A stretch of 64,000 nucleotides of DNA. Source: Candidatus Gottesmanbacteria bacterium. GTDB taxonomy: Bacteria > Patescibacteriota > Microgenomatia > UBA10105 > UBA927. The position numbers and the translations under genes are program-made. The stretch covers positions 831,907 through 895,906 of the forward strand of contig OY970230.1 of the NCBI GenBank assembly GCA_963714095.1. The letters are read 5' to 3'. Under the pieces are notes generated by a model, which was not told the DNA's origin, ran no database searches, and saw only the letters and a list, made by a program, of their open reading frames with translations. This document shows positions 25,059 to 30,200 of this stretch, one piece after another (the first letter of the stretch is position 1; the number at the start of each line of letters is the position of its first letter).

Positions 25059-25283
25059 TCCTTACTTATCACAATCATATCAAATCTGTCAATATTTTAC
25101 TAATTTTTATTCCGGATTTTTGTGACAATCTATTATTTAGACAGTGATAAGCAAATGATATGATTAAATACCCTATTGACAACAAGCCACTTTTTATTAC
25201 ATAGTAGATATAGTCTTGTGAAAACTTGTAACGCTTTTAGTAATAACTTGTAATAATTTGTAAAGAATAGGAAAAACGAGGCT

Positions 25284-27230
25284 ATGGCTGCCACATACAC
25301 CGTAAAACAGGTCGCAGAAATACTTGGATATAGCACCAACAGTATTTATTCTTTCCTCAAAGAAAAACGCATTAAAGGAATACGGGTCGGCACTGGTCGT
25401 TTCCGTATTCCGCAGAGTGAATTGAACCGGTTACTCCTGATTTCTAAGGCTCAGCCCAGCGGCAAACAACCGGGGACGCTTGTTCCCATGACCGGCACTC
25501 TTATTGCATCGGATTCGGGAGTTATTGCGCCTCACGAGTCGGCTCCGCCGTTTTCCCTTTCACTTTTTGGCGGGATTCATACTATGACGGCAAATATCTT
25601 TGACTGGTTTATCGGCATTGCTGCAGTCGTAGTCGGTATTGCCATGTTTCTTTTCGATCAGTCATTTGACATTGTGCATATGCAATCGTTTATGCCGGTT
25701 ATTCCCGCAACACGGATTCTCCTCATCGGCGGGGGGTTGGGAATACTTCTCACGAATTTTACCTATGATACCCATAAGAACTGGCATAGGGTATTTCACG
25801 GCGTCCTTGTGGTGGCCGGTATCGTGATGACGATATTTCTGGTTATGTCGCGGGATTTTGACGCCGTCGGCGTGTACGGGGCCCTGACGCTTGTTATCGG
25901 TCTTACCATGTTTGTACGTCTGGGGAAAATTATCCCGTTTGTCCTGTATCTGACGATTTTGGCGGCTTGCGCACCTATTGTGGACTTTATCGCACCTCAG
26001 GATTTTCATGTCATGGCAATTTCCAGTGTGTTGGGTGTGACGCCGCAGGTTTTAGGTATTGGACTGTTATTTCTCAGTTTTGGATTTATCCTCCTCCTGT
26101 GGTGGGGATTATACCGGAACAAAGTTCTTTTTTGGCTGTGTTCGTATGCGGCAACCGTCGTGTATTTTGTCCTGGCATATTGGTTTGCGACCGCCCAATT
26201 TTGGTCCCGTGCGTTCTTTTTCATGATTATTGCTCTCACGTGTATGTACCTGCCGTCGTGGGGGGATCTCACGTTGTCCCGTAACCGGAAAGCACACGCG
26301 ATGGCTGTCGGCGTCTTTCTGTCGATCATGGCGGTACTCCTCATCGGCGTTACGGTGGTGTATGTGACCCAGCTGAACGTCATCGCGACAGTCAAGCAGG
26401 AAAATGTCCAGAAAGTGGATTATGCACGCACAACAATTGAAAGCGATCTGCAGAGCGTCAAATCTACGGTGACAACTGCATCCATCAATCCCGATTTGGT
26501 CACAGCGGTCGGAGCGAAGGATATATCATCCCTGACTGACTTAAGCCGCATTATATTCGACAGCAGTGACAGTATCCGGCGGATTGTCATACTGGATAAG
26601 AGCGGTACGGTGTTTTTTCTTTATCCCCTCGGGGTATTTAATCAGATAGATTTGTCATCTCAGGATTACTTTGCGAAAGCGAGGGATACCGGAGCAGTCT
26701 ATATTTCGGATCTATTTGAAACACTTGCCGATAATACCCATCGGAAAGTTGTGACAGTGTCCGCGCCGCTCTATACCCCGGAGAAGCAATTTGTTGGAGT
26801 TTTAGCAGCTTCACTCGATTTGGATGCCATCAGCGCCCGCCTGCAGAAGATCGCGGTTTTTGAACGGGGGGAATATATCGTGGTTATCGACAGCCATGGG
26901 AAACGGATCATGCATCCGGTAGCCTCCCTTATCGGTACGGATACGGAAGCCACGGACCCGACACGTCTGGGTCTTACCGGGCATACGGGAGTTGCATCAG
27001 GAGATACCTATGACGGCGTCCATTCTTTAATTGCCTATACGCCCATAGACAACTCGCTTCATTGGGCGATTGCCCTCAAAGCTCCGTTTACGGATATTTA
27101 TGCGCTCTCCAATACGGCAAACGTCTTTGTTGCAGGTTTGGTCATAGGCTTTATCGTCATTGCCGCACTTATATTTCAGTTGAACTACATATTTAAATAT
27201 AAGGCGGATACCGACGGAGGGGACCCGTGA
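25284..27230 (+). CDS. Membrane-embedded one-component regulator. It has an N-terminal excisionase/MerR-type HTH, a polytopic membrane domain of about 10-12 TM segments, an extracytoplasmic Cache-like sensor domain and a C-terminal TM.
   Basis: [46 protein letters not shown] is a Xis-type HTH. Many hydrophobic helices follow. The segment between residues 370 and 610 ([11 protein letters not shown]...[25 protein letters not shown]...) is double-Cache-like. The C-terminal hydrophobic helix is [19 protein letters not shown]. The stop TGA lies 27 nt before the fibre gene ATG. Confidence 0.6.
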
Positions 27231-27256
27231 CATTTTACCTCTTCACAGGAGATACA

Positions 27257-30200
27257 ATGACTCCGCCCCCGGGCGGTCTTGTCATTTTATTGGGATGGAT
27301 TTTGGTAGCCTCAAAACACAGATTTTACAAGTTTTTACAAGTCCGTACAAAAAATTTTACTCATTCGTACCGGTTTGTACAAGTGGAAACAGGAGCTATT
27401 TCAATTTTTGCGGTATTGTTTATCGGCATCATCGTATCGGTAGGCATTCTTCTTTTCAGGAACAGCATTAAAATTCCGGTTCACCTGACTTCCGTAGACG
27501 CCCAGCAACCGCAAACGACCGTTCCGGTGCCGCTGTCGGCACTGACTGCAGATGTATTTGCAAAGAGCGATTTTTCCGGTCCGTTTCTTGTCGTGGTTAC
27601 CCGGACAGACGGTTCCTATTCCTATGCGGTTGTGGATCAGGGGGGGCTGGTGAACGGTCATTTTGACGGAGACGTGACGGTGCATTATTCCAACGGCGAT
27701 TACGGCATCATAAAGCAACAGGCGGATACGTCCGTTCTGTTTATGACAAAAAAAGGAACTGAGGAAACGGTGTTTATTACGTATCCGCTTATTGCCGCTA
27801 TACGACTCCCTGATGGGACGATGTTGCCGGTTGAATTTACTGATGCGACGATCCGCGACGGAGCACTGGTCGGCGCGTTCCGGTTACTCGAATTTGCTGA
27901 CCAAAAACAGGTGACGGGGTATGTTGCACCGCGGGGTGAGCTCTCGGATTTGACTGCAACACCGACATTGACGTCACCGGATCCGGCAACGCTGTTGACA
28001 GAGCGGGAAATACTGAAATTATATTTTGAAATAACGGGCAATGATAACGCTAATGTGTTGGGTGTTACCACAGACGATAACAGCAATGAAGGATCGCTGG
28101 ATGTTCAACCGGGAGGCATGGTTTCAAGTGCGATTGTGGCTCAAAGAAATGCTAATGACGGCACCGTCCGGCTTGTTTCGGCGCCGGGTACTGCAGTAGC
28201 TTCGACCGGAAATTTATCGCAACTGATTCCGCAGCTTACCAGTGTCCAGGGGGAAGGATTAACCCAGCTTATTTCACAGATTGTTTCCGCGGGCGGAAAT
28301 ATTTCCGGAATCGGCAGTGCCGGTGAAACCGGTGCAACCGGGGCTGCGGGTGCTGCAGGGACAAACGGAACAAATGGGACAAACGGAACAAATGGAGCAG
28401 ATGGCGTTTCCGTTGTCGGCCCTACAGGGGCAACGGGGGCAGGAGCAACAGGTGCCACAGGCGAAGCTGGACCTACAGGAAATGCGGGTGAAACCGGTGC
28501 AACCGGGGAGGCGGGTGCGGGAGGCAGTGGCGGACCAACGGGTGCGACAGGACCGACAGGCGATGCAGGTGAAATCGGTGAAACAGGCGCGGCCGGATCA
28601 ATAGGAAACACGGGAGCAACAGGCGCAAATGGCGAAGCCGGTTTTACCGGTGCAACAGGTATTGCAGGTCCCACGGGTTCAACCGGAGCAACGGGTTCTG
28701 CCGGATTCACTGGCCCGACAGGTGCAACAGGAGCTACGGGAATAACCGGAGGAGCAGGTCCGACGGGATCAACAGGAGCAACAGGAATAGTGGGAACTTC
28801 AGGCCCCACAGGATCAACAGGAGCAACAGGGAATACGGGTGGTGTTGGTGCCAACGGTTCCACGGGAGCAACAGGGAATACTGGTGCTGGCGGAGCCAAC
28901 GGTCCCACAGGAGCTACCGGAACAACGGGTTCTGTCGGAACTAACGGTCCTACGGGAACAACAGGAGCAACCGGTGCAACCGGAACAGCCGGTCCTACGG
29001 GAGCAACAGGAACCAACGGTCCGACAGGCGCAACCGGAGGCGCAGGTGCTAATGGTCCAACAGGTGTTACGGGTTCAACGGGTGCCACCGGTGTTGCCGG
29101 TCCTACGGGAGCAACAGGCGGGAACGGTCCCACAGGAGCTACCGGAGGAGCCGGATCAAACGGACCTACGGGATCTACCGGAACAACAGGATCTGTAGGG
29201 AGTAATGGTCCAACAGGCGTTACGGGTTCAACCGGTGCCACCGGAACAGCCGGCCCTACGGGAGCAACAGGAACCAACGGTCCCACGGGCGCAACCGGAG
29301 GCGCAGGTAGTGGTGGAGCAAACGGTCCCACCGGAACAACCGGTTCTACCGGTGCCACCGGTGTTGCCGGTCCTACGGGAGCAACAGGAACCAACGGTCC
29401 GACAGGCGCAACCGGAGGCGCAGGTGCCAATGGTCCAACAGGTGTCACCGGATCTACCGGTGCCACAGGAGGAGCCGGAACCAACGGCCCCACAGGAGCT
29501 ACCGGAGGGGCAGGCAGCGGAGGAACCAACGGACCCACGGGAACAACCGGATCCACAGGAGCAACAGGAGGAGCTGGATCCAATGGTCCCACCGGAGCTA
29601 CCGGAGGCGCAGGATCCGGAGGAGCCAATGGTCCCACGGGAACAACCGGTTCAACAGGAGCCACCGGTGTTGCCGGTCCTACGGGAGCAACGGGAACCAA
29701 CGGTCCGACAGGCGCAACCGGAGCAACGGGTGTTGCAGGACCGACTGGGAGTACAGGATCAACGGGCGCAACCGGGTCCGCAGGACCAACAGGATCAACA
29801 GGAACCACTGGAGGTGGTGGTACCAATGGACCGACCGGTGCTACAGGGGGAACTGGAACTATAGGTGGTGGAGGACTTGGACCAACTGGCCCAACTGGAA
29901 ATACTGGAGCTACAGGATCTGCAGGAGCAATTGGTGTTACCGGCCCATCAGGTTCAACCGGAGCAACCGGTGTTGCGGGTCCCACCGGAACAACCGGTTC
30001 AACCGGTGCCACCGGAACAGCCGGTCCTACGGGAGCAACAGGAACCAACGGTCCGACAGGCGCAACCGGAGGCGCAGGTAGTGGTGGAGCAAACGGTCCC
30101 ACCGGAACAACCGGTTCAACCGGTGCCACCGGAACAGCCGGTCCTACGGGAGCAACAGGAACCAACGGTCCGACAGGCGCAACCGGAGGCGCAGGTAGTG

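Follow-up and report, generated by a model that had tools for sequence, protein, structure and literature searches.

In the 64,000-nucleotide stretch of a Candidatus Gottesmanbacteria genome analyzed here (contig OY970230.1; the window), a gene for a transmembrane protein with a helix-turn-helix (HTH) domain of the HTH_17 family is flanked by two inverted arrays of short, helically phased boxes. Because the arrays recur in about 90 related loci, they are very probably the regulator's own operators, controlling both the regulator and the adjacent gene for a collagen-like fiber. We put the probability that the HTH_17 membrane regulator binds these arrays and regulates the operon at roughly 0.6, judging from sequence comparison. 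The sign of the regulation and the role of the downstream array are proposed with much less confidence.

Two phased arrays around one gene

The AACTTGTAAA boxes follow the consensus AAACT(T/G)GTAAAA, as captured in a position weight matrix (PWM) built from orthologous regions. Upstream of the regulator gene, in array 1, six 12-mers start in register at 25212, 25222, 25234, 25244, 25254 and 25264 (steps 10-12-10-10-10) and have the cores TTGTGA (25216), TTGTAA (25226), TAGTAA (25238), TTGTAA (25248), TTGTAA (25258) and TAGGAA (25268). Their PWM scores (9.0, 12.8, 2.0, 15.4, 13.4 and 6.4, in order) each fall in the top 1% of the 12-mers of the window. A preliminary description of this DNA had listed four boxes at 25217, 25227, 25249 and 25259; the spacing of 10, 22 and 10 bp is exact, while each coordinate is 1 too high. 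The 22-bp gap holds the weaker TAGTAA box, and TAGGAA is a sixth box that abuts the GAGG of the Shine-Dalgarno sequence; both are in register.

Array 2, downstream of the gene, has its 12-mers at 27323, 27333, 27343, 27355, 27365 and 27375 (steps 10-10-12-10-10), the first two strong and the other four weaker (PWM scores 19.9, 14.4, 0.3, 4.5, 5.1 and 5.5). Arrays 1 and 2 are thus reverse complements of each other, inverted around one gene. The boxes described earlier for 27323-27383 were found as given, namely TTTTACAAG at 27323 and 27333, CGTACAAAA at 27344 and TTGTACAAG at 27375-27383, and further in-register TAC boxes occupy 27355-27366 and 27365-27376. This 60-bp stretch is indeed AT-rich, with 31% GC against 50% for the window, and it does lie between two hydrophobic segments of the fiber open reading frame (ORF).

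At a permissive PWM threshold, these two are the only array clusters in the 64 kb, and both flank the regulator gene. As a plain hexamer, TTGTAA shows no enrichment across the window (27 found, 37.6 expected), and only the phased arrays stand out. That such phasing is unlikely by chance, as had been suggested, holds for runs of at least three phased TTGT[AG]A boxes, of which 0.005 are expected per 64 kb under a first-order Markov null; a run of four phased boxes did not occur even under a null trained on both AT-rich regions. It does not hold for the strict two-box core of array 2 alone, which is not significant with 0.33 expected per 64 kb. The significance of array 2 comes from its position and conservation.

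Conservation across related loci

Loci were retrieved from genomes (n = 43) and metagenomes (n = 63), leaving 89 non-redundant loci from Gottesmanbacteria and Roizmanbacteria of the candidate phyla radiation (CPR). Plus-strand boxes number 2.73 per locus at -100..0 of the regulator start, and minus-strand boxes, counted in two 100-bp bins over the first 200 bp past the regulator stop, number 1.36 and 0.46 per locus; the background is about 0.04. Metagenome loci that lay outside PWM training carry at least two boxes upstream in 40/44 cases and downstream in 16/29. Among the spacings between consecutive same-strand boxes (n = 186), 10 bp occurs 96 times, 22 bp 32 times, 12 bp 10 times and 32 bp 9 times. 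Fully evaluable loci (n = 57) have array 1 in 53 cases, array 2 in 33 and a third array, described below, in 16. The comparison supports both arrays as conserved cis-elements that, throughout the roughly 90 loci, go together with the adjacent HTH protein.

Nearly every orthologue shows the same order of elements upstream: TTGACA, N17-18, CATAGT(AGATATAG) and then two to five direct boxes before the start codon. An exact TTGACA is present 5' of the first box in 79/88 loci, and the block CATAGTAGATATAG is nearly invariant throughout the clade. The first strong box lies 40, 50-51, 61-62 or 71-73 nt past the -35 hexamer, and these fixed distances indicate that the boxes are phased with the promoter too. 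From the position of this promoter we infer that transcription of the regulator gene starts at about 25210-25212.

Several other elements were seen around the same promoter. Just 5' of the -35 hexamer, the motif TGATAAGCAAATGATATGATTAA at 25146-25182 is conserved, and other loci have two GATAAG copies 11 bp apart. The minus strand of 25146-25182 reads as a TTGTCA-16-TATCAT promoter for the divergently transcribed gene at 24108-25058, which encodes a protein with a winged HTH (wHTH) domain; its -35 hexamer and that of the regulator overlap at nearly every base, which may set the two promoters in competition for RNA polymerase. One subclade (L010-L016, L019, L021, L026, L027, L029, L038, L053) has an inverted repeat, GTGAAAA...TTTTCAC, which brackets the regulator -10 and is possibly another operator, of palindromic form; the GTGAAAA of the window's clade belongs instead to box 1 (TCTTGTGAAAAC). 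Distant orthologues (L010-L015, L019, L041 and many others) have a conserved CCTGCC(N2-6)ATG and a GGGTTTGGGAGCCTGCC block before the regulator ATG, replacing the GAGG Shine-Dalgarno sequence of the window's clade.

The regulator protein was found in identical form on a 552-kb metagenome contig, and its relatives are annotated as Candidatus Gottesmanbacteria. Some GTDB representative contigs with the module (L008, L012, L013, L016, L018, L020 and others) are titled "uncultured Gammaproteobacteria bacterium", probably a mislabel at submission level. One metagenome-assembled genome (MAG; nzgw408) has two paralogous modules of regulator plus collagen-like fiber (L009 and L029; 43% and 32% identity to the query), each with its own box arrays, and the identical core of these arrays makes cross-talk possible.

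The regulator and the probable reader of the boxes

The N terminus of the regulator matches PF12728 HTH_17 in Pfam (36.1 bits against a cut-off of 27; residues 5-51) and the excisionase-family DNA-binding domain TIGR01764 in NCBIfam (33.3 bits against 28.8; residues 4-50), and its dCache_1 domain was also identified with Pfam (Table 1). An AlphaFold2 model made with 34 homologues (mean predicted local distance difference test score, pLDDT, 79.6) has an N-terminal winged helix, nine transmembrane helices, a Cache fold carried by a long stalk and a final transmembrane helix, with the hydropathy profile as a second basis for the membrane segments. With the HTH inside the cell and nine transmembrane helices after it, the predicted topology places the Cache domain outside the cytoplasm.

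The secondary structure of the modeled HTH domain (E2-6, H7-14, H18-27, E39-43, H44-54; pLDDT 78) is that of a MerR/Xis-like winged-helix fold (beta-alpha-alpha-beta-alpha), and its fold matches in the PDB are RacA, MerR-family proteins, Pukovnik Xis and BldC (probability 0.97-1.0, TM-score 0.55-0.66). By sequence, a phmmer search of all PDB entries at E<=10 returned Pukovnik Xis (4j2n, E=0.009) as the only solved relative; BldC was not retrieved, so that the likeness to BldC is at fold level only.

Mean pairwise identity among the orthologues is 0.86 in the HTH (residues 4-51), 0.18 in the linker, 0.34 in the transmembrane block and 0.39 in dCache. Practically no variation is seen in the recognition-helix region GYSTNSIY(T/S)FLKE, in keeping with the near constancy of the box.

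The arrays could be operators of another protein, either the wHTH protein of 24108-25058 or an unlinked factor, with the membrane regulator only a target. The divergent gene product carries a C-terminal ArsR/DeoR-like wHTH (Pfam, NCBIfam), the gene is syntenic in most Gottesmanbacteria loci, and the third arrays sit at the 3' end of its homologues. We nevertheless consider this explanation unlikely: the Roizmanbacteria-like loci L031, L033-L035 and L037-L040 lack the gene but keep arrays 1 and 2, array 1 stands ahead of an HTH_17 gene each time it occurs in the evaluable loci, and a near-invariant HTH_17 domain is partnered by a near-invariant box. A phmmer search over all ORFs of the window found no further HTH_17 protein, and this, together with the persistence of the arrays where the wHTH gene is missing, points to the HTH_17 regulator as the binder. 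The earlier proposal of one regulator, probably the adjacent HTH protein, acting on both sites stands as the best reading by comparison (about 90 loci, 10/12-bp phasing and -35 phasing), with binding itself being a prediction.

The junction between regulator and fiber gene

The linker/fiber ORF of the window begins at a GTG that overlaps the regulator stop codon, and a GGAGG followed by an ATGA, GTGA or TGATG overlap with that stop is found in 34/42 loci. From this coupling start, the frame runs into the fiber ORF in 26 loci, among them the window and its nearest relatives. In other loci the coupling start opens an ORF of 39-53 codons that usually ends in a second ATGA on the fiber ATG (about 10 loci exact), and such a separate fiber ATG has no Shine-Dalgarno sequence of its own. 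Separate linker ORFs occur in L017, L018, L020, L023-L025, L028, L032 and L045, and the peptide encoded by the linker at 27227-27385 shows no conservation. Conservation of the translational coupling speaks for a common transcript of regulator and fiber gene.

Because the conserved start overlaps the regulator stop, array 2 lies within translated sequence in the window's clade. Conservation of the array at the peptide level was considered and rejected, as the boxes fall in codon phases 0/1/2 at 30/25/23, the frames differ between loci, and array 2 is plainly intergenic, with neither hairpin nor linker ORF, in Roizmanbacteria-like loci. It had also been suggested that the true fiber start is downstream, for example at GTG 27364. 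There is no GTG at that position; the in-frame GTG is 27383, which we rejected as the fiber start for the window's clade since GCA, GCG or ACC-type codons replace it in the closest orthologues.

Between the coupling start and array 2 lies a terminator-like hairpin. It is found at +25..+37 past the regulator stop in 45 loci (within L004-L096), and its stem sequences differ yet stay paired (CG/GC/TA swaps). The tail is T-rich but interrupted (4-7 T per 10 nt in the majority of loci), and a translated frame runs through the element. It may act as a translation-sensitive attenuator between the regulator and the fiber gene.

With a conserved hairpin at this position, a separate fiber promoter would be useful, and array 2 could mark one that the regulator activates, with translation starting after the array, as in the preliminary description. 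A fresh promoter would make sense behind the hairpin of the 45 loci, the box TTTACA resembles a -35 hexamer, boxes two apart give a TTTACA-N16/17-TACAAN geometry, and in Roizmanbacteria-like loci the fiber ATG directly follows the array. However, the candidate -10 hexamers lack the final T, and a promoter scan found no plus-strand promoter at array 2. The window's clade has no conserved start codon past the array, and where a separate fiber ATG exists, the missing Shine-Dalgarno sequence and the ATGA overlap with the linker ORF stop imply coupling to upstream translation. An independent fiber promoter at array 2 therefore appears improbable.

DNA, RNA or structure

Two further explanations are much weaker still. 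According to the first, the arrays act in RNA: the copies in the 5' untranslated region (ACUUGUAA) would pair, within one mRNA, with the intercistronic copies (UUACAAGU), or would be read by an RNA-binding protein. In its favor, arrays 1 and 2 are reverse complements and probably both on one transcript. However, local folds of both arrays on both strands are no better than those of shuffled sequences (z = -0.06 to +0.35), and 24900-27600 has no Rfam 15 match at E<=1 on either strand, for which reasons a structured RNA or riboswitch was rejected as well. Pairing between the arrays is also at odds with the loci that have array 1 and no array 2 (20 of the 24 without array 2, among the 57), and with the third arrays, which occur in either orientation and are not part of the regulator transcript. 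Both the 10/12-bp register and the -35 phasing are properties of duplex DNA, and an RNA reader specific for one strand would miss the boxes of the other orientation. We give action at the RNA level very little credence; the occurrence of boxes in both orientations and all codon phases, the lack of an Rfam match and the folding z-scores near 0 indicate that double-stranded DNA is recognized.

Equally hard to credit are intrinsically curved DNA with phased A-tracts, structural in itself or acting via a nucleoid protein, and leftover inverted ends of a mobile element or plasmid-type iterons. With the consensus AAACTTGTAAAA every 10 bp, A4-A6 tracts do fall in helical phase; one gene has an inverted pair of arrays around it, and an unrelated giant-virus contig has the same 10-mer in tandem. 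Yet the most conserved part is the non-A-tract core A-C-T-K-G-T-A-A (frequency 0.89-0.95, against 0.66-0.78 for the A runs). The conserved gene order extends over two candidate phyla and includes neither a transposase nor a rep gene, and the cumulative GC skew climbs monotonically through the window with no turn; on these grounds mobile-element ends, iterons and an origin were rejected. The neighboring genes, which are glycosyltransferase, MreB and collagen-like genes, speak against iterons or an origin as well.

A scan of a viral collection for the two-box 17-mer gave 21 hits, about chance level by a rough estimate, and none had a regulator homologue. Viral contigs with the tandem 10-mer ATTTGTAATAACTTGTAATAACTTGTAAAAACTTGTAAA are L113 (6768-6810), L128 (86-130) and L127 (1121-1163; four perfect AGTTTTTACA copies). 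The L113 repeat lies between convergent genes on a contig labeled as a giant-virus MAG, with no regulator homologue nearby, and is probably coincidental.

A model for the module

If the membrane regulator is the binder, its HTH domains would occupy the AAACT(T/G)GTAAAA boxes cooperatively, as multimers assembled head-to-tail on one face of the DNA, six boxes to an array, with the 10/12-bp steps averaging about 10.5 bp. Array 1 would span about +5 to +65 of the transcript, where occupancy would block initiation or promoter escape and result in negative autoregulation of the operon. Array 2 would be an inverted second operator 2.1 kb downstream and behind a partial terminator, where it would either be a roadblock that stops read-through or hold the far end of a loop formed with array 1. 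A signal perceived by dCache would then set fiber expression relative to the regulator. The head may act while tethered to the membrane or after a cut in the disordered linker.

Several observations weigh against this model. All loci were retrieved via the regulator, and the link between array and regulator is thus seen only in regulator-bearing loci. The start site and the sign of regulation are inferred solely from a promoter that matches the consensus. Array 2 is absent in 24/57 loci, 20 of which keep array 1 (array 1 only: 11), and is therefore not essential to the module. The third arrays, some 1.3 kb upstream where the GT5 and wHTH genes meet or else before GT5, lie between convergent genes and in either orientation, which is odd for a classical operator. 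The window itself has no third array; its GT5 and wHTH genes are 3 bp apart. In Gottesmanbacteria, the wHTH protein of 24108-25058 is an alternative binder, and intrinsic curvature may contribute, as the boxes carry phased A-tracts. The E-values of the fold search are weak (0.01-0.1), as expected for a 58-residue domain.

Features and gene neighborhood

The features are collected in Table 1. Beyond its first ORF piece, the fiber gene continues with GXY repeats to about 36756, with frame breaks. The collagen-like gene (28300-36756) includes about 50 copies of a 117-bp unit with 90% identity at 29978-35619, and its frame lies in pieces (27227-31210, 31214-32347 and 32131-36756), owing to genuine frameshifts or to misassembly of the repeat. 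Public gene calls on the contig put ORFs on the opposite strand in this region. A homologue of the N-domain, which has no known family, lies downstream of the regulator in 42/42 loci that extend past the regulator gene, and GXY repeats follow in 39/42, wherever enough of the gene is present.

Neighboring genes encode MreB, a WecG-type glycosyltransferase, and two GT4 and one GT5 glycosyltransferases. The window is part of a cellular CPR genome and not of a phage. Two tRNA genes, tRNA-Pro(CGG) and tRNA-Arg(CCT), lie back to back, 40 bp apart, at 14694-14880 of the window.

Table 1. Features of the regulator-fiber module (window positions; those of the third arrays refer to the loci named)
Feature	Position	Strand	Description and basis
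-35 hexamer TTGACA of regulator promoter	25176..25181	+	Consensus scan; unchanged throughout 10-sequence alignment
-10-like CATAGT (25200-25205; 18-bp spacer), then invariant AGATATAG	25200..25213	+	Consensus scan, 10-sequence alignment
Array 1	25212..25275	+	Six in-register 12-mers, from probable start site to Shine-Dalgarno GAGG (25278-25281)
Regulator gene, 648 aa	25284..27230	+	HTH_17 winged helix 4-51, disordered linker 53-101, nine transmembrane helices, dCache_1 367-597, terminal transmembrane helix
GGAGGGG Shine-Dalgarno (27216) and GTG 27227 overlapping regulator TGA (GTGA)	27216..27229	+	Conserved translational-coupling start of linker/fiber ORF
First ORF piece of fiber (partner) gene	27227..31210	+	Linker, transmembrane anchor, ~300-aa N-domain, collagen-like GXY repeats; Pfam Collagen E=1e-93
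Terminator-like hairpin CCGCC-cccg-GGCGG with T-rich tail (tcttgtcattttatt)	27263..27292 (stem-loop 27263-27276)	+	Terminator scan
Array 2	27323..27386	-	Six in-register boxes, reverse-complement orientation, in translated linker just 5' of fiber transmembrane segment
Third arrays (other loci)	L008 2809-2845; L010 76-120; L012, L014, L019 ~2620-2720; L018 213-255 and 714-746; L022 1298-1340		

Comparison with known systems

To our knowledge, almost nothing is known about gene regulation in CPR bacteria (Patescibacteria), and no member is genetically tractable. Full-text literature searches returned no description of this regulator family, motif or module, and in a 2023 survey of transmembrane regulators a term search found HTH_17, excisionase, Cache and Patescibacteria unmentioned.

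BldC of Streptomyces is a MerR-like protein whose wHTH alone mediates head-to-tail binding to variable numbers of direct repeats (PMC5859096), and RdfS (PMC11963761) and D29 Gp36 (PMC12266134) are further oligomerizing wHTH relatives of the Xis/recombination directionality factor type, to which lambda Xis and Pukovnik Xis also belong. The head of the regulator resembles these proteins as a small MerR/Xis-type winged helix without a coiled-coil dimerization helix, with TM-scores of about 0.6 to BldC (6ama/6amk) and 0.55-0.57 to Pukovnik Xis (4j2n). There is also a likeness in the DNA, in that the targets are AT-rich direct repeats which vary in number, are spaced by one helical turn and lie in or close to promoters, the protein's own among them; the loci here have two to six same-orientation boxes at 10/12 bp, a layout that would suit the cooperative, DNA-distorting head-to-tail binding of BldC. 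In contrast, BldC is a stand-alone protein of about 50-70 aa that consists of the wHTH only, whereas here the domain is the head of a 648-aa dCache_1 membrane sensor with ten transmembrane helices, and the box ACTTGTAA is unrelated to BldC's AATTxxxxC.

The operators of ToxR and CadC are direct repeats, and direct-repeat operators beside the regulated promoter are a feature that the module appears to share with them. The protein architecture is likewise similar to that of ToxR, TcpP and CadC (PMC10269533, PMC6320335), as the predicted topology combines an N-terminal cytoplasmic DNA-binding domain, a membrane tether and an extracytoplasmic sensor in one polypeptide. The DNA-binding domain differs, being HTH_17/MerR-like with no Trans_reg_C match instead of an OmpR/PhoB-type wHTH, and there are ten predicted transmembrane helices instead of one, with dCache_1 as the sensor. 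The operators differ as well, in that the arrays have six boxes and lie past the start site and inside a translated region. The regulator thus belongs to neither family, as it is not a stand-alone protein and shows no sequence relationship to BldC in the phmmer search at E<=10, and it has neither the OmpR-type domain nor the single transmembrane helix of ToxR-like proteins.

The lac operator O2 in lacZ and the gal operator OI in galE are auxiliary operators within coding sequence that form repression loops. The module is similar in having a second operator copy in translated DNA, downstream of the promoter-proximal one. It differs in the distance of about 2.1 kb, which spans the whole regulator gene, and in its inverted multi-box arrays, between which looping would have to take place.

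Taken together, the module may represent a CPR-specific class of transmembrane one-component regulators, a proposal that we advance tentatively and at somewhat less than even odds. In this class, a signal to dCache_1 would control a filament-like, head-to-tail assembly of the Xis/BldC-type winged helix on six-box phased arrays that lie, inverted relative to each other, on both sides of the gene encoding the regulator. The distal array in translated sequence, together with the attenuator hairpin ahead of it, would gate a giant membrane-anchored collagen-like fiber, and, as the protein would never leave the membrane, the arrays would also pin the locus to the envelope, where both gene products insert. 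The module provides a regulator-operator pair from comparative genomics alone, in which the motif is sharp, the register fixed and the target conserved; this target is a collagen-like surface fiber that plausibly serves attachment. It is also a clean natural example of a putative protein-binding array conserved within translated DNA, and it extends the idea of the transmembrane transcription regulator to a MerR/Xis-like head on a polytopic Cache sensor.

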